From positions 466,197 through 530,196 of the forward strand of contig CAWEGX010000003.1 in assembly GCA_963808745.1 (NCBI GenBank): 64,000 bases of DNA, in the 5' to 3' direction. The number at the start of each line of letters is the position of its first letter. The first letter of the stretch is position 1. The notes under the pieces are model-generated. The model did no database searches and was not told where the DNA came from. It saw only the letters and a list, made by a program, of their open reading frames with translations. The DNA is from an uncultured Bacteroidales bacterium (GTDB lineage Bacteria > Bacteroidota > Bacteroidia > Bacteroidales > UBA10428). Both the position numbers and the translations under genes were made by a program. Positions 2,432 to 61,325 of this stretch are shown piece after piece.

Positions 2432-3145
2432 TCAGAACAAAAAATCCGCAAAGGCTTTGGCCGGAACCTGCCAAATCTCATGAAATCTGAACTGCCAGAA
2501 GACCTCCAGGAATACAAGGGTAATAAGAACAACTAAAAACGGACGGTAATTGTTCTTTTTACGGATGTCGAATACCAGGAATACGAGGGCAATGACAATG
2601 GCCAAAAAATAGGAAATATGCACAGATGAATCTCCCGGAAATTTAAATCTGACGGCCAATAGCCTCCCCAAACCGGGGCCAAGCATCACCAAAGCGGTAC
2701 CGATCATATACCTCATATGGATCGCCATGTTTCTGCTGTTAAAAATAGCGAGATAATAAAAAAGTATGAAAGCGAACATATTGGTAATCCCCAGGACCGT
2801 GCTTGCAAGGGATTCCTGTAGAGTTAAAGTTGCAATGGATCGTTCATAGACCATTTTTGAAATCATGAATATTGAAAGAATCATTAAAGGTGCGGCAATA
2901 AGGGAAAGCTTGCCGATAAACCTGTGGATCTGAAATAACCTGGCTTTTATCAGCAACGGCTGAATGATCAGAAAGGTCATCCAAACCAGCATCATAATCC
3001 CATGAAAATGTTGTTCATGACGAAAGCCCTGGAATTTAGGAAAAAACATCAGGTAGGTCTGGTAAAAACCCAAGATTAATATTAAAAGAATGGTTGTGAA
3101 AAATAAACTCAGGTAACCAAATTGGGTGGATTTAGATTGTGCCAT
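2432..3145 (-). CDS. Multi-pass integral membrane protein, unknown function
   Basis: 237-aa ORF with about 6-7 hydrophobic segments. A truncated paralog lies at 11823..12368, and its first 98 nt are duplicated at 4756..4853. Confidence 0.7.
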   Translation of the reverse strand: MAQSKSTQFGYLSLFFTTILLILILGFYQTYLMFFPKFQGFRHEQHFHGIMMLVWMTFLIIQPLLIKARLFQIHRFIGKLSLIAAPLMILSIFMISKMVYERSIATLTLQESLASTVLGITNMFAFILFYYLAIFNSRNMAIHMRYMIGTALVMLGPGLGRLLAVRFKFPGDSSVHISYFLAIVIALVFLVFDIRKKNNYRPFLVVLITLVFLEVFWQFRFHEIWQVPAKAFADFLF

Positions 3146-3456
3146 AATTTGAATTTTTTAGTTATGAATAATTGTGAATCCAGTGATAACGCAATTAGTC
3201 TGACCGGGGATTTAATGTGACTGATCAGCATGGAGCAAAGATTTTAGGCAGTTTATACGTTTGTATCTTAGAAGTTTACCTAAGGCAAAAACAAAGATTC
3301 AGACAGATTGTTCGAGGCAATTTCTGCATAGTCAAAAGGGGAACAGAGAGTTTTTTGTAAACCAGAAATAACTCGGATCAGGTATTCCTCAGATAGTCTT
3401 AAAGAGCAGAAATTTATTGATCAGTTAAAATGGGCGGATAGAGTGCAGAATGCTTC
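3048..3456. repeat. Copy A of a near-identical ~410-nt duplication (partner 4756..5163)
   Basis: By-eye alignment at a fixed offset of 1708 nt shows about half a dozen differences. The copy covers the 5' end of the membrane-protein gene plus the upstream spacer. Confidence 0.9.
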
Positions 3457-3610
3457 ATCCGGGATCTCATTCAGAAAGATTACCGGATCGATGTTCAAAC
3501 TTCCCGTATTCCTTTTCAAGACGTCATGCCATATGACCGATACCCGGCCGGTAATCGAGTTTTGGGGCTGGACCGCACCACTCCTCCGAGTCAATGATCG
3601 TTTTATCTGA

Positions 3611-4703
3611 CTATTTTGTAAAGAAACCTGCTCCTAAATTAGCTCCCGTTGTGCCTGGCACCAATTGAAGATAATTACGATTGGTAGGATCTTCTTCTAT
3701 TTTGAAGACTTCCTGTTTTTTTAACAATAACATCTTTGCCATATTTCAATTTGGCGGGATTTGCTTTTACTCCAAATCCTGCAGCTCCACCGCCCTTATT
3801 TACAAATTCATTATAACCTGTTATAATAGAGTTCTTTATTGTATAAGTATTTTTTTCTTCTTTATCCAACACCCAGATTACATTGGCGTTGCTAATTACG
3901 TTGTTGTAAAATTTAAAATCTTCAGCTGTTGACCAGGTCCATACGATTGCTCCATAAGTGTTTGCAAAAAGATTATGGTGCATTTCGCATTTAACGGCTG
4001 GTGTATTCCACATAACTACAGCATCTTTAATACCATAGAACACACAATGATCTACTTCTAATGCGCTTCCGCTTGCCAGAATTCCTAAATGATTTGGAAG
4101 TGTAATTTTGTTTCCTAAAAATAAACATTGAGTAACTCTAAAATCTTCAAGGTCTTTACCATCCCACATAATTGGGTAATTTCTGATTAAAATATCTTTG
4201 GTTGGGCTTTCGTGCACGGGTTCACCTAAAATACGTAATCCCTGAATGGTAACATGGCTTGTTTCAATGAGTATACCATAGTTAAAAGCGCCTGTAAGCT
4301 CTTTTTTATCATTCTTTTCTTCTATATCAAAAGGCATGGTGGATACTATAACAGGCATATCACCTGGATTCCAACTGGCATCGTCAGGTAATTTTTCAGC
4401 ACTTATAATTAAACGTTCTGCATTGGAAAACTGCCACATTAACGGGTTAAATTTTGCTGTTTCTGCCATGCCGTAAACACCTTTGGAAATTAAAATGGTA
4501 ATTGCTCCTTTTCCTTCTGAGTTATTTACTCTTTTAGAAGCTTCGCTTAAAGATTTTAACGGACTTTCTTTTGTGCCGTTATTTTGATCATTTCCGGTAT
4601 TTGCATTAATAAATATTTCTTTTGAATTTTGAGCAAATACAGTAGTTTGTAAAGCTAGTAAAATCACAAGTGTTTTCAAAGCATATAAAGTAATTTTATT
4701 CAT
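3611..4703 (-). CDS. Secreted right-handed beta-helix (pectate-lyase-fold) protein, paralog A; one frameshift near the 3' end
   Basis: Signal peptide, then 'IFINANTGNDQNNGTKESPLKSLSEASKRV', an N-terminus typical of beta-helix proteins. The listed ORF 3675..4703 ends early. After a shift at the T4 run (~3700) the frame reads 'IEEDPTNRNYLQLVPGTTGANLGAGFFTK*', matching the C-terminus of paralog B. Confidence 0.7.
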
Positions 4704-4755: not shown

Positions 4756-4853
4756 ATCAGGTAGGTCTGGTAAAAACTCAAGATTAATATTAAAAGAATG
4801 GTTGAGAAAAATAAACTCAGGTAACCAAATTGGGTGGATTTAGATTGTGCCAT
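4756..4853 (-). pseudogene. Duplicated 5' fragment (first ~33 codons) of the 2432..3145 membrane-protein gene
   Basis: Nearly identical to 3048..3145, including the ATG (complement of 'cat' at 4851-4853). No continuation of the gene follows. Confidence 0.8.
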
Positions 4854-5163
4854 AATTTGAATTTTTTAGTTATGAATAATTGTGAATCCAGTGAAACGCA
4901 ATTAGCCTGACCGGGGATTTAATGTGACTGATCAGCATGGAGCAAAGATTTTAGGCAGTTTATACGTTTGTATCTTAGAAGTTTACCTAAGGCAAAAACA
5001 AAGATTCAGACAGATTGTTCGAGGCAATTTGTGCATAGTCAAAAGGGGAACAGAGAGTTTTTTGTAAACCAGAAATAACTCGGATCAGGTATTCCTCAGA
5101 TAGTCTTAAAGAGCAGAAATTTATTGATCAGTTAAAATGGGCGGATAGAGTGCAGAATGCTTC
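4756..5163. repeat. Copy B of the near-identical ~410-nt duplication (partner 3048..3456)
   Basis: See copy A. Identity ends at 'gaatgcttc', after which copy A carries an extra ~133 nt. Confidence 0.9.
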
Positions 5164-5188
5164 CGGGTCAAATGATCGTTTTATCTGA

Positions 5189-6283
5189 CTATTTTGTGAA
5201 GAGTCCTGCTCCTAAATTAGCTCCGGTTGTTCCTGGCACCAATTGAAGATAATTCCGGCTGGTAGGGTCTTCTTCTATTTGAAGGGCACCCTCTTTTTTA
5301 ACAATAACATCTTTGCCAAGTTTTAATTTACCAGGGTCAGCTTTTTCACCAAAACCTGCGGGACCGCCGCCTTTGTTGACCAACTCATTATAGCCAATGA
5401 TCAAAGAATTTGAAAGCGAGAACGATGCTTTTTCGTCTTTGTTTAAAATCCAAATAACATTGGTATTCCCGATAACATTATTGTAAAATTTTAAATCTTC
5501 GGCGGCAGACCAAGTCCAAATATTTGCACCATAATTACCGATAAACAGATTGTGATGGACTTCACAATTCCTGGCAGGTTCGTCAGAAAACCAGAAGACA
5601 ACAGCATCTTTGCAATGATAGAAGACACAGTGATCAACCACCACTCCCTGGCCACTTGCCAGGATTGCCAGGTGGTTGGGAATGGCCTGACGATCCCCGA
5701 TAAAAAGGCACTGGGTAACCCTAAGATCATCGAGATCTCTGCCTTCCCGCACAATGGGATAATTTCTCCTTACCAATCCTTCTTCAGGTCTTTCATGTAC
5801 AGGTGTGCCTAAAATCCTAAGACCCTGTACGGTAACATGACTGGTTTCAATTTGAATTCCATAAGATGCCCCGCCAAGCGGATCCTGCCTGCCATAAGGT
5901 TTAAAATCAAGGGGCATGGTGGATATAATAACCGGCATTTTGCCAGGATTCCAATCTGCATCATCCGGTAAGACTGCTGCCCGGATGGTCAGCCGTTCTT
6001 CCCTGGTAAAATGCCAGTTCACCGGATGAAAAGTCACAGTAGCATCCAGACCATATATTCCTTCAGACAGAAATATGTTAATTGATCCTTTGCCGTTGGC
6101 CTGATTAACCCTTTTGGCTGCCTCAAACAGCGATTTCAGTGGTTGATCGGCTGATCCCGTGTTTTGATCGTTGCCGGAATTCGAATTAATGAATATCTCT
6201 GTTTTATTTTGAGCAGATACAACAGTTTGTAATGTGAATATTATTACAAAGACTGGCAAAAGGCATAAGAATCTTGATTTCAT
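5189..6283 (-). CDS. Secreted right-handed beta-helix (pectate-lyase-fold) protein, paralog B (intact)
   Basis: 364-aa ORF with a signal peptide. 'IFINSNSGNDQNTGSADQPLKSLFEAAKRV' is colinear with paralog A along its whole length but clearly diverged. Confidence 0.8.
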   Translation of the reverse strand: MKSRFLCLLPVFVIIFTLQTVVSAQNKTEIFINSNSGNDQNTGSADQPLKSLFEAAKRVNQANGKGSINIFLSEGIYGLDATVTFHPVNWHFTREERLTIRAAVLPDDADWNPGKMPVIISTMPLDFKPYGRQDPLGGASYGIQIETSHVTVQGLRILGTPVHERPEEGLVRRNYPIVREGRDLDDLRVTQCLFIGDRQAIPNHLAILASGQGVVVDHCVFYHCKDAVVFWFSDEPARNCEVHHNLFIGNYGANIWTWSAAEDLKFYNNVIGNTNVIWILNKDEKASFSLSNSLIIGYNELVNKGGGPAGFGEKADPGKLKLGKDVIVKKEGALQIEEDPTSRNYLQLVPGTTGANLGAGLFTK

Positions 6284-8729: not shown

Positions 8730-10022
8730 TCAGCTTGATAGGTTACCGGATGGATGTTTATACTTCCTGTATTCCCTTTTCAGTTGAGCAGATGCTTCAG
8801 GATTGTCAATTATTTCGCGCTTCTTCTGATCCCATTTAACTATCGAACCAGTGTTATATGCGATCATCGCAAGCTGAACAGTTGCAGTGGATTTAAACGC
8901 ATCTTCGGGATCACAGGTGATGAGTCCCTTATCCTTGTTCCTGACAGCCTGCAGAAAATTGGCCACGTGATCTTCCTGCATCTGCGGTGTAGGAATATCC
9001 ATATCTTCACGCTTGCTGTCCTTTCCCGCCGGAAAGATCACCACCTTTGAATCCTGCACAAACAGAGCGCCTTTATCACCATGGAAATATATTCCGTTAC
9101 TGAATTCTGATGATGCATCACCGTTACCCCATAACCTGTGCTGCCATATTACCGGTGCTTTTCTGAAATTCATGGTGGCTGTAAGCGTATCGGGTGTTGT
9201 GATCTGATCCTTCAATACATAAATTCCACCCCTGCTAAAGAATTCATCAGGCATCTCCTCGTCCATAATATTCCTGATAATATCTATATGATGGATCCCC
9301 CAGTCGACCAGATGCCCATTCCCGTATTCCTTTTCAAGACGCCATGCCATATGACCGATACTCGGCCGGTAATCGAGTTTTGGGGCGGGACCGCACCACT
9401 CCTCCCAGTCGAGAGTTGACGGAGGAGCCTGAACAGTGGTTTCCTTCAAAACAGGGTTATAGTTTATCTGCGCCACCACCTGGTGCAGGTTACCAATCCG
9501 TCCGCCGTTTATGAGTTCCTTTGCTTTTTTAAATGCATTGCTTTGCCTGCGCTGGAACCCAACCTGTACAATATTGCCGGCCTTCTTTGCCGCATCCACC
9601 ATGGCCAGCCCTTCCATCACGTCATATGCCAACGGCTTCTCGCAATAAATATCAAATCCCTTTTTGCAGGCCGCGATAAACTGAAGCGCATGCCAATGCG
9701 GAATAGTGCCGATGAAGATCACTTCAAGGTTTTTCTGATCGAGCAATTCAGGGTAATACTTGAACGTCTTCGGTCGGGTTCCCTGAAGCTTTTCAAGTTC
9801 ATCGGCGCTGCTATTCAGGTGATCCGAATCGACATCGCAAACCGCGGCAATTTCGACACCACCGGATTTCAGCGCAGCACGGGAAATAACCATGCCATAC
9901 CATCCTGCCCCGATGAGTCCGATTTTGATTTTCCTTTCCTGAAAAACAGAAGGTAAATAAACGGATGAAACCAATGCAGTAGTACCTATGCCGGATACTT
10001 TCAGGAAATCTCTTCTTTTCAT
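8730..10022 (-). CDS. Gfo/Idh/MocA family oxidoreductase with TAT signal
   Basis: 'MKRRDFLKVSGIGTTAL' is a twin-arginine leader. 'KIGLIGAGWYGM' is a Rossmann motif. 430 aa. Confidence 0.85.
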   Translation of the reverse strand: MKRRDFLKVSGIGTTALVSSVYLPSVFQERKIKIGLIGAGWYGMVISRAALKSGGVEIAAVCDVDSDHLNSSADELEKLQGTRPKTFKYYPELLDQKNLEVIFIGTIPHWHALQFIAACKKGFDIYCEKPLAYDVMEGLAMVDAAKKAGNIVQVGFQRRQSNAFKKAKELINGGRIGNLHQVVAQINYNPVLKETTVQAPPSTLDWEEWCGPAPKLDYRPSIGHMAWRLEKEYGNGHLVDWGIHHIDIIRNIMDEEMPDEFFSRGGIYVLKDQITTPDTLTATMNFRKAPVIWQHRLWGNGDASSEFSNGIYFHGDKGALFVQDSKVVIFPAGKDSKREDMDIPTPQMQEDHVANFLQAVRNKDKGLITCDPEDAFKSTATVQLAMIAYNTGSIVKWDQKKREIIDNPEASAQLKREYRKYKHPSGNLSS

Positions 10023-13659: not shown

Positions 13660-13862
13660 ACCTCCGAGTCAATGATCCTTTTATCGGACTATTTCGTGAA
13701 AAGTCGTGCTCCTAAATTAGCTCCGGTCGTTCCTGGTTCCAATTGAGGATAATTCCGGATGGTAGGGTCTTCTTCTATTTGAAGGGCAGCCGCCTTTTTA
13801 ACAATAACATTTTTGTTTAATTTTTTTTATCGGGATTGGCCTTTTGTCCAAATCCCGCAGCT
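13660..13862 (-). pseudogene. 3'-terminal relic of a third beta-helix paralog, with the same upstream junction as paralog A
   Basis: 'cctccgagtcaatgatcc ttttatcggactatttcgtgaaaagtcgtgctcctaaattagctccggtcgttcctgg...' matches 3580..3720 and 5167..5290. Homology fades after ~200 nt. Confidence 0.75.
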
Positions 13863-17270: not shown

Positions 17271-17460
17271 GCTAAAGGCTAAAGGCTGTTAGGCTGAAGA
17301 CTGTCAGGAATGCCTCTTCGTTGCTTGCAGTCGTTAAATCCCGGGTACTATATTCAGAATTCGGCGTTCGGTGTTCTCCCGATAAATCGGGACAGGCTTT
17401 GTTCGATATTATTTGTGATGACACAATAACACTGAACAAGGAACACCGAATTTCGAATTA
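17268..17460. repeat. Intergenic repeat mosaic A
   Basis: 'taggctaaaggctaaaggctgttaggctgaagactg' starts at the TAG stop. It is followed by a 'gcagtcgt' unit, a small hairpin 'cccgataaatcggg' and a long-range inverted repeat 'ttcggtgttc' (17367) / 'gaacaccgaa' (17441). Confidence 0.85.
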
Positions 17461-17470
17461 CGAAGATGGT

Positions 17471-21424: not shown

Positions 21425-23795
21425 TCATTCATGCTTTAGCGTCTCCGCCGGATTAGTCCTTATCGCCCTTATGGTCTGGTAACTGATGGCGGCCATGGCG
21501 ACCACCACGGTTATGGCAGCAGAAACGCCAAATATCCATGCATTCAGCCTGGTATGATAACTGTAATTTTTCAGGAAATGCGACAGCAGATACCAGGTTA
21601 TCGGGACGGAAATTACTGTTGCCAGCACCAGCAACTGCAAAAACTGCCAGGTAAAAAGATGGAATATAGTTAACAGCAGGTGCACCCAACGCCTTTCGTA
21701 TACCCACTTCACGGGTTTTTTGTTCCACTGTGTAGGTAGCCATTCCAAACAGGCCAATGGCGGCAATGAGAATGGCAAAGATGGCAAAGTAATTCATCAA
21801 TGTGCCCATTCTTTCTTCGGTCCTGTACATGTTGTCAAAATCCTGGTCCACAAAATGATAGTCAAATGGATAGGCGGGCATGATTCTCTTCCAGGCTTTT
21901 TCCAGCTGCTTCATTGTTTCAGTGAGGTTTCCCGGGTTAACCCGTATATACATGTAATTCCAGAACTGGGGCCCCCACATGGAGATGGCCAGGGGTTCTA
22001 TTTTATTGTGAAGCGACTGGAAATTGAAATCTTTCATAACACCGACGATGGTCCCGTAAGATCCAAATCTCAGCGAGGCTCCCACTGCATTATCCAGACC
22101 CATTATTTTTTCCATCGTTTCGTTAATGATAAAATTGGCTGTTGTATCATGAGATACGTCACCGGGATAGGCTTTTGAGAATGTGCGACCCGCCTTCATT
22201 TCGATTCCCATCGTTTCAACATAATCAAAATCAACTCCACTCATGCTGACAAGAATATCCGTTTCCGGCGACTTTCCTTCCCAAAAGGCGTTGTCGGAAT
22301 TACTTCCAATCTGTTGCGGCTGGTCCAAACCTGCAGTGATCGATTTTACAACCGGTTCATGCAGAAGTTCCTCCTTGATCATGGGATAGGAATTTTTCAG
22401 ATCGCCCCGGAGCGGGAGATAGAGCAGATTCTCTTTGTCATACCCAAGCTTTTGACTTTGCATAAGATGAAGCTGGCGGTATATAACGATGGTACCGGCA
22501 ATAAGCATAATACTCAAGCCAAACTGGATTGTAACCGAAATTTTCCGGAAAGTGATACCTGTTGTGCCGGTATTGAAATTTCCTTTCAATGTGTGGATAG
22601 GTCTGAAACCGGAAAGAACCATGGCCGGATAGGTGCCGGCAAGCAATCCCGTGAGAATGGTGATCACCACCATACCCAGAACAAATCGCATGGTTATCAG
22701 GTCAGCCAGGTGAAATACTTTTCCTGAAATACTGTTAAATGGTGATAGCAGCAATAAAACAAGGACAAATGCAATTACCATTGAAAGAAATGCCATCAGA
22801 AGCGATTCGCCAAAAAACTGGAACAGCACATTATTACGATGCGCACCATTTACCTTGCGCAATCCGATTTCCTTTGCACGGGCAATTGACCGGGCGGTAC
22901 TCAGGTTCATGAAGTTTATGCAGGCAATGATGAGCACAAGGATCGCAATGGATGCAAAAATCCATACATTGAGTATCGCTCCCGGCTTATGACCGAAACC
23001 CCAGTAACTGTACAAGTGCATACGCGTAAGCGGTGCAATTACAAAATCAGTTGTGCTTTGGGGATTATGCTGCCTTGCAATCGCGGTCAGCTTGGCATTC
23101 ACCTTCGAAGTTTCCACATTCGGCCTGAGCATCACATAAGTCGTGATTGAATTGTTACCCCATTGATCGGAATACCATTGTGATTTTTTCATGTAATCGA
23201 AGGGAATCAGAAAATCCTGGTCAATGGAGCTGTTGGATGGCATTTTTTTCATTACACCGGTAACCTGGAAGATCTCTTTCGTATTAACAGTAAATGTTTT
23301 ACCTATAGGATCTTCTTTGCCGAAATATTTGGATGCCATCTCATCACTGATAACCACTGAGCCTGGCTGAGCCAGGGCTTTTTTTGGATTACCCTTAATC
23401 AGCTCAAAGGAAAACATGTCAAAAAATGAGGAATCTACGGCAGATACCTTTTCTTCATAAAATGATCTTTCATTCCTTGTAAACAGAAAACTACCTGCCT
23501 GGGTGATCCTGCATGCTTCCCTGATCTCAGGTATCTGATCGCGCCAGACCGGGCCTGAAGGCCAGGGTGTTACCTGCACATGATACACACCATTGCTGTA
23601 GTGCTGATCTTCTTCCACACGGTAAATCAATTCAGCGTTCTTATGAAACCTGTCAAAGTCCAGCTCATCTGCCACCCAGAGGAAGATCAGCATGGCACAG
23701 GCCAGTCCGATGGATAATCCCGCCATATTCATGAATGACACACTGAAATGACGTACGATATTCCTGAATGCGATAACCAGGTAATTTCTGAACAT
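21425..23795 (-). CDS. FtsX/MacB-like ABC transporter permease (~790 aa), one frameshift near the 3' end (~21700-21790)
   Basis: 'MFRNYLVIAFRNIVRH' is typical of this Bacteroidota permease family, which carries two FtsX domains. The true C-terminus '...YQTIRAIRTNPAETLKHE*' lies in overlapping ORF 21425..21787. Confidence 0.75.
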
Positions 23796-27613: not shown

Positions 27614-27641
27614 GTCCCTTGTCCCTAGTCCCTTGTCCCTA
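27614..27641. repeat. Intergenic repeat mosaic D (GGGAC-type array, reverse orientation)
   Basis: 'gtcccttgtccctagtcccttgtcccta'. It contains the last four codons and the stop of the 27625..28242 gene. Confidence 0.85.
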
Positions 27642-28242
27642 ATTTAATCACCCCAAATGACGAAGGTATATGAAAGTCCGGGCGGACCGATTCAGGTTTT
27701 ATCCAGCTTATCCATGAAAAACCGGATTCAGGATCACGCACTTTCAGGCATTCGCCACGGAACAGTCCTGCCTGCAATTCATTGTTATTTAGCAGATTCA
27801 ATTCTTTGAGCGAGGCCAGTGTAATGGAACCTTCAACAATGTAACCTGAGTCAGCATAATTCGATTTGATCTGAAGCTGATTGATGCCGGGCCATTGCCA
27901 TTTATAATCAAACTTCCGGTAGAAACTTGCCCTGTAATCAAGGACCCTGCCCAGGGGATCCATTTCCAGGCAATAATAGGGATTAAGCCGGTCATCGCAC
28001 CTGAAGAATATTTCCACCCTGTCAGAATCCACCACTTCCATCTTGTTATTATCATGAACGTACGTAAGGGCGCAGGTGACTACAACATCAAACCTGAAAT
28101 ATAAACGTGCATCGTCCCACAATGCCCGGAATGACATCACGGGTGGCGGCTGGACCGACCATGGATAACTGAATTCCGTCAGAACCAGGGCGTCATCCCA
28201 GTTCAGGGAATGATTTATCTTAAGGGCAGAATACGTTTCCAA
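27625..28242 (-). CDS. CBM9-like (carbohydrate-binding family 9-like) domain protein, TTG start
   Basis: 'WDDARLYFRFDV...DRVEIFFRCDDRLNPYYCLEMDPLGRVLDYRASFYRKFDYKWQWPG' fits the CBM9-like pattern. There is no signal peptide. Confidence 0.55.
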   Translation of the reverse strand: METYSALKINHSLNWDDALVLTEFSYPWSVQPPPVMSFRALWDDARLYFRFDVVVTCALTYVHDNNKMEVVDSDRVEIFFRCDDRLNPYYCLEMDPLGRVLDYRASFYRKFDYKWQWPGINQLQIKSNYADSGYIVEGSITLASLKELNLLNNNELQAGLFRGECLKVRDPESGFSWISWIKPESVRPDFHIPSSFGVIKLGTRD

Positions 28243-28285: not shown

Positions 28286-28406
28286 TACAATACCATATGC
28301 GCTCCGCGCAATCGTAAATCGTAAATCGTAAATCGTAAATTCCTACCGACGGCAAATCCCTACAGGATTTTCCTGCTCGTCCCTAGTCCCCAGTCCCTAG
28401 TCCCTT
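28286..28406. repeat. Intergenic repeat mosaic E
   Basis: 'tacaataccatatgcgctccgcgc', then 4x 'aatcgta' (28310-28340), the module 'tcctaccgacggcaaatccctacaggattttcc', and 'gtccctagtccccagtccctagtccct' (28379-28406). Confidence 0.9.
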
Positions 28407-28408
28407 CT

Positions 28409-31052
28409 TTACATTCCCAGCCAAAAACTCATCTTTACCATAAATACGTTAGTCGGTGCTCCTCCAAAAAGGTCACCCAGGTTATCACTTAGCGAGGAAT
28501 AATAAATATTGTCACGGTTATGCTGATTGTTCTCCCACACCAGGTAAATTGTTGAACCCGGGCGGTATTCCCATCGTGCCACAAGATTTGACCGGAATTC
28601 CCTGAAACTGAAATCCGGATTGTTGAATGAATAGGTGTCTGGTCCGTCATTCACCTGATAGGAATTCGTGGACTCGTCGAAGCTGATTTCAGATTCCGTA
28701 AAAGAATGATACCGGTCATTTATGTCATCTGCATTGGCATCGAGGGTTTTCTTGAAATCATCGTATATACCGGTTGAAATAAAGGGACTCCCATAATACT
28801 GAATGGAGATATCCGGCGTGATATTATAATTAAGGCGCAAGGTGACGCTATAGGTTTGCTGTTTGATATGTGCCAGAATGTATCGCATATCGGTACTCGT
28901 CTGTTTCTGAGTCACATAAATGAAATTGTCGATATTGTGATCATAGGCCATTTGGCCGGTGATATAAAAATGATTTCCAAGTCTGAAACTGAGTGATGGT
29001 TTTATCACATATCGGCGGGATACACCATCCGTGCTCACGGAACTTATATTATTCAATCCGAATATTACACGATCTGATTTATTTGTATTAAACGAGATGA
29101 TGTTATCCCAGTAAGGTGAAAGACGAAAAGCCGGTCCTCCGCGCAGCAGGCGGGTGGACAATTCTGCAAATGTATATGATTCGGTCATGGAAAGATCCCA
29201 CCGGTTGGTGAACTGTGCTGTAAATGCCGCGTTTACATCATTGTGGGTGCTCACTCCGCCGTAGTTCCAGGCATTCATCTGTCCAAGGGTAAGGGTATAA
29301 TTTCGTAATATGCCGCGAGGTTCGGTCTGGCGGATGCCCAGTTTGGTGAGATTCTGGATAAGATCAGCCATCAGCAGGTAGCCAACATCGTTCATGTCAA
29401 AGCCGGGTGACCACCAGCTTACCTTTTCAGAAAAAATAAAGCGCTTGTTACCAAGCCGGCCTGCACTCAGATAACCGCCGGTACCCGAAAGTGACCTTCG
29501 GCTGCTGTCAACACCCAGGTAACCTGAAGCATCCGGTCGCTGGTAATAGTGCAGGGGATTACGCTGAAGTGACCACTATGGCTTCTTCCTTTCCATTAAT
29601 ATAGCTCATAATACCCTTAAAATCAAGAAAATATTCGCGGTCTTTTGAATATTGAAGCAGGTCGATGCCGGCAGTATAGGCATTCTTATTGAGGTATTCC
29701 AGGTGGGGAACGTCGGAAAAACGGTTGGTGGAGGTAAACATGGTACCAAACTGGGTATTGCCCTTGTTGGCAATTTTCTGAACGCGGGCTACCAGGAAAT
29801 TGGTGAGGGGTTCAACTACGGGATTGGTCTCCACCCCGTCCGTTGTAACTTTTGCCGTTTCTTTCTGCGTGGTGCTTTGCAGGATACCCACGGATATCCC
29901 GTTACGGGTTGTTCCTGTCAGCTTGATTGCATTGATGATGTTGGTGAATTCAGGTTCTTTTGAAAAAGAGGTTACATTGTCCACTTCAGGCGAATAGGAG
30001 GGAGCATGCCCGATCCGGCGGGAATAGAACATCATGTTATTGTCGGGTGAAAAATCAAAAATATGTTTTCCTTCCAGGAAAAAGGGCCTTTTCTCTTCGT
30101 AAAAAGTCTCAAATGCGGTAAGGTTCATGACGGAAGGATCCGCCTCGATCTGTCCGAAATCCGGATTTATGGTGACATCCATTGTAAAATCACCGACACC
30201 TATTTTGCTGTCAATACCGGCATTCCCATTCCACCTGACTCCATTGGAATAAGGGCTGCCCTCGATCTGGGGTTCCATGGTCATCTTGGCGGCTACATAG
30301 GGAAGAAACTCAATGAGCCTTGGTTTTTGTATGCCCTGCAGCCCGTACATCGTGCCGAATGAATAAACATGGCCGCTGTTTTTGCGGGGAATAAGGCTCC
30401 ATTGGTCCACCTCCTGAAGTCGGCGGACTATGCGGCGCACATGCAATCCCCATACCATCCCGCTGTCGCTTTGATTATAACGCAGCTGGTTAAGCGGGAT
30501 CCTGAATTCGGCGATCCAGGAGGAATCATTCACAGATGTTTTTCCTTCCCAGACTGCGTTCCAGTTGAGGTTAACCGACAGGTTATCGGTGACGATGAGA
30601 TCGGTCTTGTTGCCACCCGCGTTGATATTGAATTCTGCTGCTGCCCGGCTGTCGTGATAAGAGTCAAAGGCAACACTGATGAGATCACCGATGGAGTTGT
30701 CATCGCGGTTTCCCACGAAGCGGTTTATCTTATCAGGTTCAGGATCCCAGGCGCGAAGGGCAAAATAGATATTTTTATCATCGAACAGTATCTTGATCTT
30801 TGTCGGGTAGGTGGGCTGTGCCCGTTCAACCGGTGTATTCTGCAGAAATTTCTGTGACCAGTTGCCTTCATTCTTCCAGCAGTCATCATCGAGTTTGCCA
30901 TCAATGACCGGGGGCTTTCCCTGTAATTTAACCGTATGATAGGACCGTTTGTAAGCCTGGTCAAAGGGAATGAGCGTATCGGCGCTTTGCGCCAGGGAAG
31001 GGGGAGTGGTTAGTGAAAGCAGCAGGAACAATATAAATACCAATCTCATCAT
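28409..31052 (-). CDS. CBM9-like + DUF5916 outer-membrane protein (~880 aa), one frameshift (~29565)
   Basis: The N-terminus has a signal peptide and 'IDGKLDDDCWKNEGNWSQKFLQNTPVERAQPTYPTKIKILFDDKNIYFALRAWD'. The 29396-29560 gap translates in the frame of ORF 28409..29395 ('LQRNPLHYYQRPDASGYLGVDSS...FDMNDVGYLLMADL'). It ends 'VFMVKMSFWLGM'. Confidence 0.7.
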
Positions 31053-31150: not shown

Positions 31151-31317
31151 CGGTTCTGAGTAGTTTTGCAATTGGTTTGTAGAGACAAGGCAATGCCTTG
31201 TCTGTACGATTTCATCCAATATTGAAGTCAAGAAGTCGTGCAGTCTTCGAACCAGGGAGGATTACCGATTACTGATTACCGATTACCGATTACCGATTAC
31301 CGATTACCGATTACCGA
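31151..31317. repeat. Intergenic repeat mosaic F
   Basis: 'cggttctgagtagttttgcaattgg', the 40-nt hairpin element (31178-31217), 'gaagtcaagaagtcgtgcagtcttcgaa', and about 8 units of 'gattacc' (31260-31317). Confidence 0.9.
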
Positions 31318-33147: not shown

Positions 33148-33378
33148 GTTCTGCGGTTATGCAGTTGGAGTAATGGTGAATGGTGAATGGTGAATGCTAT
33201 AGATACTTACAAATGATTCAAAATTTGTAGTATGGTTTGGCTCTTGAGTCATTCATTCTTGCAAATTTTCAAATCATCAAATCACCTAATCCCTAAAGTC
33301 CAAAGCCTTCGTACAATTTAAATAAATATCCTTAACTTTACATAACGAGTTACTTCCATTCACCATTCACCATTCACC
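33148..33378. repeat. Intergenic repeat mosaic G
   Basis: 'gttctgcggttatgcagttgg', then 'aatggtgaatggtgaatggtgaatg' (33172-33196) and its inverted partner 'ccattcaccattcaccattcacc' (33356-33378), which ends 8 nt before the rsgA ATG. Confidence 0.9.
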
Positions 33379-34451: not shown

Positions 34452-34696
34452 TTCTGCGGTTCTGCGGTTCTGTGATTGGTCTGTAGAGACAAGGCATTGC
34501 CTTGTCTGTACGATTTCATCCAATCATTGCAGTCTTGCAGTCGTGTAGTCAATGAAAGTCCCCTTCGGAGGGGGCAGGGGGAGGATTGACGTAATCCACC
34601 CCCTACCCCCGCCAGCGGCGGAAATCATCCCTTGAAGCCTAACAGCCTATAGCACATATAGCAGCCTAATCCCCTAAGCCTCCAGCCTATCAGCCT
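34449..34696. repeat. Intergenic repeat mosaic H
   Basis: 'tagttctgcggttctgcggttctgtg', the 40-nt hairpin element (34482-34521), 'attgcagtcttgcagtcgtgtagtc', a GC-rich palindromic island (34558-34612), and reverse TAGGCT-type units (34634-34696) overlapping the regulator's stop. Confidence 0.9.
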
Positions 34697-53240: not shown

Positions 53241-53558
53241 ATGGATACTGGATGCTGGATGCTGGATACTGGATGCTGGATGCTGGATACTGGATGCTGG
53301 ATACTGGATGCTGGATGCTGGATACTGGATGCTGGATACTGGATGCTGATGAGGAATTTTGAATTATGACATGTGGAATGGGACTGAAGACTGCACTACT
53401 GCAAGACTGCGTTTTTCATAATAAATATTGGAAATCGTACAGACAAGGCATTGCCTTGTCTCTACAACGTTTTTCCCTTTACCGAATACCGATCACTGTC
53501 ACCGATACCGATCACCGATCACCGATTACCGAATACCGATTACTGATTACCGATTACC
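53241..53558. repeat. Intergenic repeat mosaic I
   Basis: About 15 units of 'tggatRc' (53241-53351), 'ggactgaagactgcactactgcaagactgcg', the hairpin element in reverse orientation (53431-53466), and 'accgat'-type heptamers (53480-53558) running into the UDG-like gene. Confidence 0.9.
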
Positions 53559-55648: not shown

Positions 55649-55869
55649 GCTGTTAGGTTATTAGGCTACTAGACTACTAGGCTACTAGGCTATTAGGCTG
55701 TAGCCTATAGGCTGTTAGGCTGTTAGGCTGTAGGCCAATAGGGGCTTAGGGGCTTAGGGGTTTAGGTTTAGGCTTCATCAGCATATTATCACATTAGCAC
55801 ATTAGCACATTTATTTCCCCTTTTAGTTTTTAACTATCAACTACAATTCAACTATCAACTAACAACTAA
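55646..55869. repeat. Intergenic repeat mosaic J
   Basis: 'taggctgt/taggttat/taggctac...' octamers start at the TAG stop. They are followed by 'cttaggggcttaggggtttaggtttagg', 'cacattagcacattagcacat' (55790-55810) and 'aactatcaactacaattcaactatcaactaacaactaa' (55832-55869), which ends 8 nt before the next ATG. Confidence 0.9.
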
Positions 55870-58230: not shown

Positions 58231-58947
58231 ATGAAAACGATTTTGCACCGGGCAGGTACCCGTGGGCATGCCAGCCACGGCTGGCTTGAAAGTTACCATA
58301 CATTCAGTTTTGCCGATTATTTCGATCCGGGGCGCATTCATTTTGGCGCCCTCCGGGTTTTAAATGATGATGATGTAGCGGGAGGAATGGGTTTTGGAAA
58401 ACATCCCCATGATAATATGGAAATCGTTACAATCATGCTCGAGGGTGAATTACGGCACGAAGACAGCATGGGACATAGCGAGATATTGCGAAAGGATGAG
58501 GTACAGGCAATGTCAGCCGGAACAGGTATTTTCCATTCAGAAGTGAATAACCTGCGCGACAAGCCTGCCAGACTGCTTCAGATATGGGTGTTTCCGGAAA
58601 GACGAAATATTACACCCCGGTATGAACAAAGGGCCTTTGATCCGCAGGAACGGAAAAACACCTGGCAGTTGCTGGTTGGGCCTAACCCTCCTGATGGTGC
58701 CCTCGACATTAAGCAGCAATCCTGGTTTTCACGGATTGACCTCGAAAAGGGAAGCCGGGTGGATTATACCCTGCATAACAAGGACAATGGGGTGTACCTT
58801 TTCATGATCAGCGGGAATACAACAATTGACAATGATCTGAAACTTGGCTACCGCGATGGTGCCGGCCTTTCCGAAACAGATAAGGTGAATATCCTTGCAG
58901 ATGAGAAATCGGAAGTGCTGGCGATTGAGGTGCCTATGATTGAGTAG
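58231..58947 (+). CDS. Pirin family protein
   Basis: 'HPHDNMEIVTIMLEGELRHEDSMG' is the cupin metal-binding region. 238 aa. Confidence 0.85.
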   Translation: MKTILHRAGTRGHASHGWLESYHTFSFADYFDPGRIHFGALRVLNDDDVAGGMGFGKHPHDNMEIVTIMLEGELRHEDSMGHSEILRKDEVQAMSAGTGIFHSEVNNLRDKPARLLQIWVFPERRNITPRYEQRAFDPQERKNTWQLLVGPNPPDGALDIKQQSWFSRIDLEKGSRVDYTLHNKDNGVYLFMISGNTTIDNDLKLGYRDGAGLSETDKVNILADEKSEVLAIEVPMIE

Positions 58948-59146
58948 GGACGAGGGACTGGGGACGAGGGACGAGGAAGAAAGTTCTGCAGTTCTGCAGT
59001 TATGCAGTTGCAGTTTTGCTGCTGCGTCAGCACATTTCATACATTAGCATTAGCACATTAGCACATTAGCACATTAGCACTTAAAACCTCAAACCTCAAA
59101 TCTCAAATTCATAATTCATCATTTATAATTCATAATTCATAATTCC
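58945..59146. repeat. Intergenic repeat mosaic K (five array families in ~200 nt)
   Basis: 'tagggacgagggactggggacgagggacgagg', 'gttctgcagttctgcagttatgcagttgcagtt', 'cacattag' x~5 (59031-59080), 'aacctcaaacctcaaatctcaaa', and 'ttcataattcatcatttataattcataattcataattcc'. Confidence 0.9.
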
Positions 59147-59186: not shown

Positions 59187-60059
59187 ATGCCCGAAAAGCG
59201 TACATTCATAAAAACCACCGAAAAGCCTTCTGTTTACAGTCATTTGGAAAAGATGAGCGTTCGTGAGCTGCTTGTCAGTATGAATAATGAAGACAAACAG
59301 GTTCCCCTGGCAGTTGAAAAGGCGCTCCCTCAAATTGAAAAGCTTGTGGAAGCCATTGTGGATTGCATGCTGGCGGGCGGACGTCTTTTTTATATCGGTG
59401 CCGGTACCAGCGGCAGACTTGGCATTCTTGATGCCAGTGAATGTCCTCCTACATATGGCGTGGAACAAGGACTGGTGGTTGGTTTAATGGCGGGCGGAGA
59501 TTCTGCCATCCGTAAAGCAGTGGAGCATGCAGAGGACGATACAAACCAGTGCTGGAAGGATCTCCAGTCATACAATATTCAGAACAGCGATGTGGTGATA
59601 GGCATTGCGGCCAGCGGGACAACGCCTTATGTGATAGGCGGGGTCACCAGTTGCCGTGAACATGGGATCATTACCGGTTGCATCACATGCAACTGCGGAT
59701 CTCCCCTGGCAGCCAATGTGGATTTTCCGGTGGAAGTGGATGCAGGTCCGGAATTTGTCACCGGAAGCACACGCATGAAATGCGGAACAGTTCAAAAACT
59801 TGTGCTGAATATGATCTCTACATCGGTGATGATCAGGCTGGGCAGGGTAGAGGATAATAAAATGGTGAATATGCAACTCACCAATAACAAGCTTGTAGAT
59901 CGGGGTACCCGCATGGTGATGGAGCAAATGAAAATCTCTGATTATGAGGAAGCGAAGGCTCTCCTGATGAAATATGGTAGTGTGAAAAAGGCTATTTTAG
60001 GGACAAGGGACAAGGGACTAGGGACTGGGCAGTTCGGAAAATCCCGGTTTAAGGATTGA
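59187..60059 (+). CDS. murQ: N-acetylmuramic acid 6-phosphate etherase
   Basis: SIS domain 'GGRLFYIGAGTSGRLGILDASECPPTYG' and 'VVIGIAASGTTPYV..'. The last ~19 codons are translated repeat array. Confidence 0.85.
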   Translation: MPEKRTFIKTTEKPSVYSHLEKMSVRELLVSMNNEDKQVPLAVEKALPQIEKLVEAIVDCMLAGGRLFYIGAGTSGRLGILDASECPPTYGVEQGLVVGLMAGGDSAIRKAVEHAEDDTNQCWKDLQSYNIQNSDVVIGIAASGTTPYVIGGVTSCREHGIITGCITCNCGSPLAANVDFPVEVDAGPEFVTGSTRMKCGTVQKLVLNMISTSVMIRLGRVEDNKMVNMQLTNNKLVDRGTRMVMEQMKISDYEEAKALLMKYGSVKKAILGTRDKGLGTGQFGKSRFKD

Positions 60060-60202
60060 TTGTCGGTAGAGGAAGAATTTACGATTTACGATTTACGATT
60101 GGAAGGCATCGACTCGTCACCGACCAATACCGAAGCTCCCTGAAAGCTAAACCCTAAACCCCTAAACCTGAACCCTAAGCCCCTAAGCCCCTAAGCCCCT
60201 AA
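59998..60202. repeat. Intergenic repeat mosaic L
   Basis: 'tagggacaagggacaagggactagggactggg', the module 'ggaaaatcccggtttaaggattgattgtcggtagagga', 'atttacgatttacgatttacgatt' (60077-60100), and 'aaaccctaaacccctaaacctgaaccctaagcccctaagcccctaagcccctaac' (60148-60202). Confidence 0.9.
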
Positions 60203-61325
60203 CATTCAACACCGGGTTGGCATAGATCTTTAAAAGGATATCCACATGTTCAGGTGTATTCAGATTCAGTGCTGACAATTCCCTGTTTACATACTGATCA
60301 AAATCAGCCTCATCTGCAGCCGAATAAAACTTTGAATATATCCTATTGTTATTCAGCCTGTCGCAGGCAATGTAGTTATTTGGCCAGAGCCTGTAATTCC
60401 GGTATATTTCAGCATCCATCAACGATGCAAGATTATTGATCTTGTCATTGAATGCAGTTGTATTCCCGGTTTCCTTCAAAAAAGTATTCACCGGATGGCC
60501 AATTGAAAGATGGATGCGTCCTTTCTGACTTGTGATACCCGTGAGAATGCTCATAAAATCCTCATTGGGAGCCTTCTGGTATGTCAGTCCTTTTAGTACA
60601 ACATTGGTTTCTTTCACTTTCAGCGCACAGCAGGGTTCGTATTCATAAGAAATCGACAGCGGTACAATATTCAATTCGGAAAAAGACTCCTCAAATGAGT
60701 TGCCCCCACTGATATTGAACATTTTCAACAGTCCGGTCTCCGTTTTGTCATTTCCATCCTTGGTACGCCCGTTTCGCTGGGCAATCCATGCCGATGTCCG
60801 CTTTTGGGTAATAGTATGACGAATATATGCCGAAAGGACCTGGGAGTTTCTGAACATTTCTTTACGGTTACCGCCCCGGTAAACCGTGAACATCCGGTTT
60901 ATTTTTCCGAAATCAACGATAAATGGATTCGACATCAGGTTACTGCCAAAAGTGATCTCTGAACTCAGATGTCCGTTATCAAAGAGCAAAACCTGTAAAA
61001 TGGCTGAATCGAGGACAATGTCGCGATGGTTCGATACGAAAAGATAGGGTGTTCCCGGAACCAGTAAATCAAATCCGCTGTAGGTTAGTCCCTTTGATGT
61101 TTTCTTTACAATAGAATTCACAAGGGGGTGCATGAACTGTTTTTGAAAATTGATGGCTGATTGAATGCCTTTCAGTTCAGCGATGATGTCCTCTTTTTTT
61201 CGGTCGGGAAAGATATACTCAAGGACCTTGCTGAATTCGGGTACATTTACAATACGATGGAGCGCCGGATTAATTTCATCATCGTTGTAAGGGCGGATAT
61301 CCTCAAAATCCTGTTCAGTATACAT
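60183..61325 (-). CDS. Glycerol/lysophospholipid acyltransferase family protein (PlsC-like)
   Basis: 'LFVSNHRDIVLDSAILQ' is an acyltransferase motif-I-like block. 380 aa. Confidence 0.6.
   Translation of the reverse strand: MYTEQDFEDIRPYNDDEINPALHRIVNVPEFSKVLEYIFPDRKKEDIIAELKGIQSAINFQKQFMHPLVNSIVKKTSKGLTYSGFDLLVPGTPYLFVSNHRDIVLDSAILQVLLFDNGHLSSEITFGSNLMSNPFIVDFGKINRMFTVYRGGNRKEMFRNSQVLSAYIRHTITQKRTSAWIAQRNGRTKDGNDKTETGLLKMFNISGGNSFEESFSELNIVPLSISYEYEPCCALKVKETNVVLKGLTYQKAPNEDFMSILTGITSQKGRIHLSIGHPVNTFLKETGNTTAFNDKINNLASLMDAEIYRNYRLWPNNYIACDRLNNNRIYSKFYSAADEADFDQYVNRELSALNLNTPEHVDILLKIYANPVLNVRGLGA

Follow-up and report, generated by a model that had tools for sequence, protein, structure and literature searches.

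A recurrent cassette of G-rich heptads and a GTAG-tailed hairpin at gene 3' ends of uncultured Bacteroidota

BOX elements of Streptococcus pneumoniae (boxA-boxB(n)-boxC) carry a variable number of tandem sub-units of about 45 nt between conserved modules, and REP elements of E. coli protect the mRNA upstream of them. GTAG-tagged REPs have stems of 5–13 bp and form clusters that are tandemly repeated together with flanking DNA (Di Nocera et al. 2013, PMC3733652); these REPs and their clusters (BIMEs) have also been described by Nunvar et al. (2010, PMC2817692). GTAG repeats were reported from Proteobacteria, Cyanobacteria, Chloroflexi, and the PVC group, and not from Bacteroidetes (PMC3733652). 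G-quadruplex (G4) forming heptads are known as GGGNATC from Xanthomonas and as GGGGA(C/T)T from Nostoc (Rehm et al. 2015, PMC4692102). They occur preferentially as four units on the sense strand, less than 50 bp from stop codons (PMC4692102). Heptamer repeats with the word TAACTGA have been found in Beggiatoaceae, Cyanobacteria, and some Bacteroidetes (MacGregor 2015, PMC4679880).

We analyzed a stretch of 64,000 nt (the window) from the genome of an uncultured Bacteroidota bacterium with approximately 43% G+C. Genes of the usual chromosomal kind flank the elements described below (pirin, MurQ-like etherase, DUF5916/CBM9, MacB/FtsX permease, ECF sigma factor, RsgA, UDG). The best named relatives of the MurQ-like protein come from Chitinophaga and Chitinophagaceae (72–75% identity), and unnamed proteins from metagenomes and MAGs reach 80–97%; an exact match for the protein of the pirin ORF is not on record. 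About 12 tandem or convergent intergenic regions of the window are packed with 7- or 8-nt tandem arrays that draw on a small recurring vocabulary (TAGGCTAC, CCATTCA, GACTGCAA/GTTCTGCA, CATTAGCA, TGGATGC, GATTACC, CCCTAAR, GGGACNN, TTTACGA), with non-tandem hairpin modules interspersed. Most of the tandem and convergent spacers in the source genome are filled from this repertoire, and the stretch under study (28286–28406) is therefore one case of a genome-wide intergenic style.

For this stretch, the original prediction had proposed that a GGGAC array, a central module, and a TTTACGA array follow each other in the same order at two distant loci, and that a third site pairs a GGGAC array with a module that is also present at the first. 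Both proposals could be confirmed, and every string quoted in their support is present at its position and on its strand. The features are as follows.

28411–28409, minus strand: TAA stop codon of ORF 28409..29395, which precedes site 1.
28404–28379, minus strand: heptad block of site 1 (GGGACTA GGGACTG GGGACTA GGGAC), 4 nt past the TAA, on the sense strand; matches the G-quadruplex motif.
28378..28340, minus strand: linker GAGCA and central module of site 1 (GGAAAATCC-TGTAG-GGATT-TGCC-GTCGGTAG-GAA), with GGAAAATCC at 28373–28365 and GTCGGTAG at 28350–28343.
28340–28310, minus strand: TTTACGA array of site 1, 4.4 perfect copies, a facultative 3' partner.
28309–28286, minus strand: R-module of site 1 (GCGCGGAGCGCATATGGTATTGTA), a GCGC hairpin and GGTATTGTA(G)AAAA, 43 nt upstream of the next ORF start (28242).
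60000–60025, plus strand: heptad block of site 2, GGGAC x4, at the 3' end of the MurQ-like ORF 59187..60059, which reads through the block.
60036..60076, plus strand: central module of site 2 (GGAAAATCC-CGGTTTAA-GGATT-GATT-GTCGGTAG-AGGAAGA), beginning 10 nt past the heptads, with GGAAAATCC at 60036–60044 and GTCGGTAG at 60062–60069.
60077–60100, plus strand: TTTACGA array of site 2, 3.4 copies.
60138..60202, minus strand: CCCTAAA/CCCTAAG arrays next to site 2, the G-rich TTAGGGG strand of which is the sense strand for the convergent ORF 60183..61325; matches the G-quadruplex motif.
21423–21397, minus strand: heptad block of site 3, GGGAC x4, 29 nt past the TAA of ORF 21453..23795.
21375–21357, minus strand: R-module core of site 3 (GAGCGCATACGGTATTGTA), 21 nt after the heptads.
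27614..27639, minus strand: GGGAC block of four heptads, with the TAG at which ORF 27625..28242 stops; there is no module after it.
58947..58981, plus strand: GGGAC block of four heptads that overlaps the TAG stop of the pirin ORF 58231..58947; the family linker GAGGAAGAAA comes next, and then GTTCTGCA arrays where the hairpin would stand.
31171..31220, plus strand: first copy of module H (ATTGG-TTT-GTAG-AGACAAGGC-AAT-GCCTTGTCT-GTACGATTTCATCCAAT), a canonical-looking GTAG-tagged palindrome.
34475..34524, plus strand: second copy of module H, between GTTCTGCG and TTGCAGTC arrays.
53431..53467, minus strand: third copy of module H.
34556–34625: G/C-rich module (GTCCCCTTCGGAGGGGGCAGGGGGAGG...CCACCCCCTACCCCCGCCAGCGG), the right half of which follows the central module in six metagenome copies.

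The central module had been taken for unique; it is instead a dispersed repeat family of approximately 36 nt, and related contigs from metagenomes and MAGs yielded about 45 additional copies. Searching genome contigs for TTTACGA x3 led us to a locus in a related MAG (L113, MFD04716.bin.2.165), where the heptads start within the upstream ORF, a few codons ahead of its stop, and run past that stop; then come the module, TTTACGA x4, and another copy of the module. From the four copies in the window and at L113 we wrote a pattern with which a metagenome scan returned 32 contigs, approximately 27 of them clear members. The family consensus reads (G)GAAAAATCCC, a loop of 3–5 nt, GGGATT, KNCT, GT(C/T)GGTAG, and AAAA. 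Since the family was gathered with a pattern from the only two window copies, its invariant columns are partly an ascertainment effect. The members also agree at positions outside the search pattern, namely in a purine leader, the C and G that close the stem, the final A of the loop, the T before GTCGG, and the A tail.

Using a profile HMM built from the metagenome copies only, we could establish that the two sites are the only significant matches in the 64 kb (E = 9e-6 and 3e-5; next best 0.54), a test that is not fully independent because the metagenome set was itself found via a pattern from these two sites. With nhmmer, 54 matches were detected in the collected loci. Among 120 contigs selected for TTTACGA, which represent at least 10 phyla, the only matches were to L113 and L068 (one related MAG) and one marginal hit, and about 115 TTTACGA-bearing contigs of other lineages contained no copy. 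This specificity indicates that the module is restricted to one lineage and that the TTTACGA word is not; the carriers belong to one group of uncultured soil or freshwater Bacteroidota. In the window, GTCGGTAG occurs three times (0.41 expected) and the 17-mer GCGCATAYGGTATTGTA, with three mismatches allowed, twice (0.16 expected). The window contains two TTTACGA arrays, precisely those that follow the module. Arrays of TTTACGA x3 were also seen in at least 120 contigs from ten or more phyla (among them Bacteroidota, Verrucomicrobiota including Akkermansia, Acidobacteriota, Chloroflexota, Planctomycetota, Cyanobacteria, Proteobacteria, Actinomycetota, and Nitrospirota), outside the lineage without the module. 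There they often abut a stop codon or pair inverted into long hairpins (Pyrinomonadaceae; L061).

The hairpin that the original prediction had drawn as aaatcc/ggattt is longer at site 1, where 7 bp form (AAATCCT/GGGATTT) ahead of an unpaired tail ending in GTAG; at site 2, a slightly decayed copy, only 5 bp remain (AATCC/GGATT). A perfect 6-bp stem with a loop of 3–5 nt is present in 37 of 48 anchor-defined copies. Covariation, which had been proposed as a check on this hairpin, gave some compensatory change: 97.9% of the stem cells are paired and three of the six pairs have changed on both sides, counts that derive from about two to three events in an alignment with some rows chosen for their hairpin. 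The structure is weak (approximately −5 to −9 kcal/mol, z approximately −0.5 to −1.9), and the predicted minimum-free-energy fold contains a G4.

The two modules of the window share about 22 of 33 positions and differ in loop, spacer, and linkers; each is nearer to copies in other genomes, which marks them as old family members and not as a pair that arose by recent duplication. This distance bears on the idea that ectopic recombination or gene conversion between the GGGAC arrays on the left and the TTTACGA arrays on the right copied the intervening DNA with no dedicated machinery. Identical array words do flank the module at both sites, and arrays of the same word at many loci could serve as short homology arms. 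However, the divergence of the two modules speaks against recent mutual conversion, the arms would measure only about 25–30 nt, and most copies have no TTTACGA on the right. We consider this explanation quite improbable. At least 10 of the approximately 27 metagenome copies are no more than 100 nt away from the end of their contig, which suggests that the module is present in multiple copies per genome.

The original prediction had also held that slippage at each site independently would not give this arrangement, and this judgment stands. Arrays do slip: the copy numbers of the CATTAGCA and GTTCTGCA arrays differ between the window and a related strain (L156). Still, the non-tandem modules match the family profile, the order recurs at non-orthologous loci, and assemblies made independently, in different projects and from different types of data, contain the cassette (Logan SRR contig L156; JGI metagenomes L124–L155; NCBI/ENA MAGs L113 and L062). 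Independent slippage combined with chance likeness, or an assembly artefact, thus seems extremely unlikely as the source of the pattern.

What is repeated can best be seen as a cassette of approximately 70 nt with facultative neighbors. It begins with four heptads (G[G/T]GACNN x4) on the sense strand, at or a few nucleotides past the stop of the upstream gene. A purine-rich linker follows (GGAA or GCAG, then GAAAA), and then the hairpin of 6–7 bp (AAATCCC/GGGATTT), 4 nt, and the unpaired tail GT(C/T)GGTAG-AAAA. At least two G[GT]GAC units were found within 70 nt upstream of the module in 17 of the 36 copies with enough flank (exactly four units in 11 of these 17), and downstream in 2 of 37. 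Thirteen heptad blocks could be counted in loci that had not been selected for the module: ten contain four units, two contain three, and one contains five.

Heptad block, module, and TTTACGA array occur in this order at sites 1 and 2 of the window and at the non-orthologous loci L113 and L141. The same three-part order is probably present in L125, the upstream flank of which ends at the contig end, and in L133 another copy of the module replaces the heptad block. In all, the order was seen at five or more loci that are not orthologous. The original prediction of a composite that is copied as a whole therefore holds for the recurrent order but not for a fixed composition, because a TTTACGA array follows only about 6 of 39 copies (the two in the window, L156, L125, L133, and L141, plus L113). 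Other 3' partners are GAGAGAT arrays (three copies) and the CCACCCCCTGCCCCCGCCAGCGGGGGA module (six copies), which also occurs in the window near 34596–34622; a module of the form CCACCCCC...GGGGGA is among the alternatives, and the remaining copies are followed by other arrays, a further copy of the module, or plain sequence. In unselected DNA from the lineage, the module precedes three of seven TTTACGA arrays and is absent at four. Given that further copies in the same order exist at L113 and L141 and that the central modules match the family profile, the term BIME-like mosaic is a fair description.

The R-module (TTGCGCAGAGCGCATAYGGTATTGTAGAAAA) is a further dispersed family. It follows TTTACGA arrays at site 1, in L062, and in degenerate form in L068; it follows heptads at site 3 and in L140, and it is tandem in L144. 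Site 3 and site 1 have GAGCGCATAYGGTATTGTA in common. The TTTACGA array and the R-module with its GCGC hairpin are optional 3' neighbors from one small repertoire, to which module H, a GTAG followed by a palindrome of 9–10 bp, also belongs together with the central module. Within the 64 kb we counted two copies of the central module, three of module H, and two of the R-module. As judged by eye, the 3' half of the central module may be homologous to module H (ATTGCCT-GTC-GTA). One copy of module H (53429–53468) is 100% identical over 40 nt to L001 5475–5514, amid flanking genes that are approximately 80–84% identical, which means either strong constraint or recent spread.

How does this cassette compare with the described systems? 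The central module resembles GTAG-tagged REPs in being a short extragenic stem-loop with a short loop, probably in many copies, and in forming tandem clusters with flanking DNA and mosaics with other conserved motifs. Its size and stem agree with those of GTAG-tagged REPs (20–40 bp, stem 5–13 bp). Unlike in most REP families, the GTAG is found on the 3' side of the hairpin and 8–9 nt from the stem in both the central module and the R-module, and the partners are tandem arrays of 7–8 nt. Central module, R-module, and module H all carry an unpaired GTAG, and only that of module H abuts the stem (0–2 nt in REPs); the GTAG of the central module is 8 nt away, and the search pattern accounts for part of its invariance. 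With the BIMEs of E. coli the cassette shares the mosaic principle and not the architecture, because the copies are single or head-to-tail (L113, L135, L143, L148, L141) and not alternating. Genes for RAYTs, which are IS200/IS605-type Y1 transposases, are usually single-copy. The absence of any transposase or RAYT signature (motif Y..NPV with WQ..F.DH) from six-frame translations of the window and the loci, about 250 kb of lineage DNA, is therefore weak evidence.

The heptad blocks resemble those described by Rehm et al.: four units in 10 of the 13 unselected blocks, sense strand near the stop codon, agreement of all five window blocks, and maintenance between the same ORFs in related genomes. 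They differ in their unit (GGGACNN), their phylum, and their connection to a hairpin/GTAG module. Relatives often contain GTGAC instead of GGGAC, which breaks the G-tracts and still leaves four units; this argues against G4 formation as the sole constraint, and a G-quadruplex can therefore not be what the family as such conserves. In the window, we counted 9 G4 motifs against 0.19 in shuffled sequences, and arrays at the 3' ends of genes make up six of the nine. Cyanobacterial STRR or long simple-sequence repeats and the TAACTGA repeats are similar in that many heptamer families are confined to intergenic DNA, mixed arrays share a spacer, and words recur across phyla; these reports describe arrays alone, without a recurrent order with hairpin modules or a fixed block of four units at the stop codon. 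BOX elements are likewise modular non-coding intergenic repeats with a fixed order, and differ in sequence, in their larger sub-units, and in their Gram-positive host.

Two further candidates were rejected. The suggested likeness to a MITE fails since the composite is bounded by GGGAC heptads at one end and by TTTACGA or GGTATTGTA at the other, which are not inverted complements, and since no target-site duplication borders the 58-nt indel described below. A CRISPR array can be dismissed, because the two window copies are about 32 kb apart and the 'spacers' of L135 and L143 are themselves repeated.

Comparison with relatives shows which parts of these intergenic regions persist. In L001, L002, and L003, whose genomes are approximately 80–84% identical to the window, the GGGAC block is kept at the stops of both the pirin and the MurQ-like gene, and everything beyond has been replaced; the orthologous position of the site 2 block is also kept in L156. 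This strain, about 98% identical across MurQ, has the whole of site 2 in the same place and order, with the family-typical module loop CTTTA, to which the window copy adds two bases. L156 contains an extra block of 58 nt upstream of MurQ (L156 approximately 330–390, aligned between 59140 and 59145 of the window), which consists of a unique 30-nt segment (GCTCTTCCGGCATCCGGTATTTTCTTTTAAC) and GTCCC x4, an inverted heptad block. Target-site duplications had been proposed as a check, and none was found at the borders of this block. These comparisons establish that heptad blocks are stable, that near-identical strains can gain or lose a heptad-containing block in one piece, and that ordinary arrays slip. 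At site 1, the best orthologue of the gene is 69% identical and lacks the cassette; orthologues at or below this identity are too distant for dating the insertion.

Several observations concern the genes and arrays around these sites. The MurQ-like ORF ends within the module after the heptads (window 59998–60059), which adds about 20 codons, and the MurQ stop of relatives (L001 5395–5425; L003 4990–5030) is the TAG of a GGGACTAG unit. As the placement of this stop differs among relatives, the cassette reshapes the C-terminus of the protein strain by strain. Telomere-like arrays lie at 60138–60202 (CCCTAAA/CCCTAAG; TTTAGGG/TTAGGGG on the other strand) and at 55739–55766 (TAGGGGCT), and at both places the neighboring upstream gene has the G-rich strand as its sense strand. 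The DUF5916/CBM9 gene upstream of site 1 (28409–31052, minus strand) is split into two ORFs by an in-frame stop or frameshift near 29400–29560. A similar split occurs in the assemblies of two relatives (L002 4613–7261; L157 2806–5146), either as a real two-ORF arrangement or as a recurrent indel error of long-read MAGs. In one divergent intergenic region, two CCATTCA arrays (33172–33196 and 33356–33378) are mutually inverted, each in sense orientation upstream of its own gene, and one of them ends 9 nt before the start codon of RsgA. Another intergenic element (17353–17465) is 77% identical to L113 624–734 and comprises a long inverted repeat (TTCGGTGTTC...GAACACCGAA) with arrays on its flanks. 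Finally, the window contains a direct duplicate of 409 bp (3048–3456 and 4756–5163, 98.8% identity) and additional segments of 85–96% identity (3593–3741, 5171–5318, and 13661–13815; also 3501–3592 with 9319–9410). These segments adjoin beta-helix ORFs, and it looks as if a region of paralogous genes underwent segmental duplication recently.

All five heptad blocks of the window are on the sense strand, at distances that range from overlap with the stop codon to 29 nt after it. The module is co-directional with the upstream ORF in 23 of 30 callable copies, usually 14–60 nt past the stop. At L113, the cassette sits between the stop codon and a canonical terminator of hairpin and T-run, and would therefore be transcribed as part of the 3' UTR. 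Such strong sense-strand, stop-proximal placement would suit a cis-acting element of RNA or DNA that is kept at the 3' ends of genes by selection and is not a mobile repeat. It could be a 3'-UTR cassette to which a factor binds, or a terminator or insulator of an unconventional kind; function would set the order of G-tract block, hairpin, and protein-binding heptads, and copies would resemble each other as selection preserves one signal at many genes. The four-unit blocks that persist at the orthologous pirin and MurQ ends while the rest turns over, and the compensatory changes in the hairpin, point in the same direction. On the other hand, 7 of the 30 copies are not co-directional, the hairpin is weak, the partner modules vary freely, and tandem super-repeats of 50–70 nt (L135, L143, L148) look like repeat dynamics and not like a signal. 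The structured RNA that the original prediction had considered finds no counterpart in Rfam either: at gathering score the window contains only a tRNA, and with E up to 10 allowed nothing better than E = 2.6 was found at either site. We regard selection as the whole explanation as rather unlikely, and note that it is compatible with a REP/BIME-like origin.

Other searches gave no function or vehicle for the cassette. In a blastn comparison of the site 1 composite with plasmids and phages, the module was never matched; the TTTACGA array alone matched plasmids of Planktothrix and Bacteroides and two unannotated phage contigs. Scans for sigma-70 promoters and intrinsic terminators at both sites and in 60 kb of the window gave counts at the level of shuffled sequence, which speak neither for nor against promoter or terminator function; Bacteroidota promoters, and with them the idea of the R-module as a promoter, lie outside the model used. 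We dropped the resemblance of GTCGGTAG to a tRNA D-loop as a coincidence, given that neither a D-stem nor any other tRNA feature accompanies it. The idea that the reversed module is a weak terminator for convergent genes was also abandoned, because the orientation of the downstream genes is unbiased (15 versus 11). A literature search for these motifs, or for such elements in Bacteroidetes or Chitinophaga, found no report.

Taken together, these observations make it probable that the stretch at 28286–28406 is a single copy of a modular intergenic repeat that is specific to this lineage and REP/BIME-like in kind. On this reading, the cassette would spread as a non-autonomous element, moved by a RAYT-like trans-acting enzyme or by recombination between shared arrays. 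It may be retained at gene 3' ends where, transcribed in the 3' UTR, a quadruplex posited for the heptad block (GGGACUAGGGACUGGGGACUAGGGAC) and the hairpin could form a 3'-end structure. By analogy to the REP elements of E. coli, this structure might shield or insulate the upstream message. Both the dispersal mechanism and this function are what we infer from the arrangement of the copies.

Mosaic intergenic repeats are known from other bacteria, and this cassette, with its recurrent order of heptads and a GTAG-tagged hairpin, adds a further form to them. A bolder reading, which we hold to be doubtful, is that this lineage carries a novel 3'-end cassette that is both the substrate of a dedicated copying process, RAYT-like or other, and a selected post-transcriptional signal at stop codons, and that the small vocabulary of 7–8-nt words, some of which (such as TTTACGA) are shared by ten or more phyla, reflects a common mechanism for generating or reading heptads and not chance.

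If the REP/BIME-like explanation is true, GTAG-tagged REP-like elements and four-unit G-rich heptads would both be extended to the Bacteroidota, coupled in one cassette. The hairpin with GTCGGTAG-AAAA provides a searchable model with which much of the intergenic DNA that is otherwise unexplained in these uncultured genomes could be annotated. These repeats also interrupt metagenome assemblies and change the C-termini of proteins, as in the extended MurQ-like ORF. Finally, the blocks that keep four units despite lost G-tracts offer a direct test case for the G-quadruplex account of four-unit heptads.
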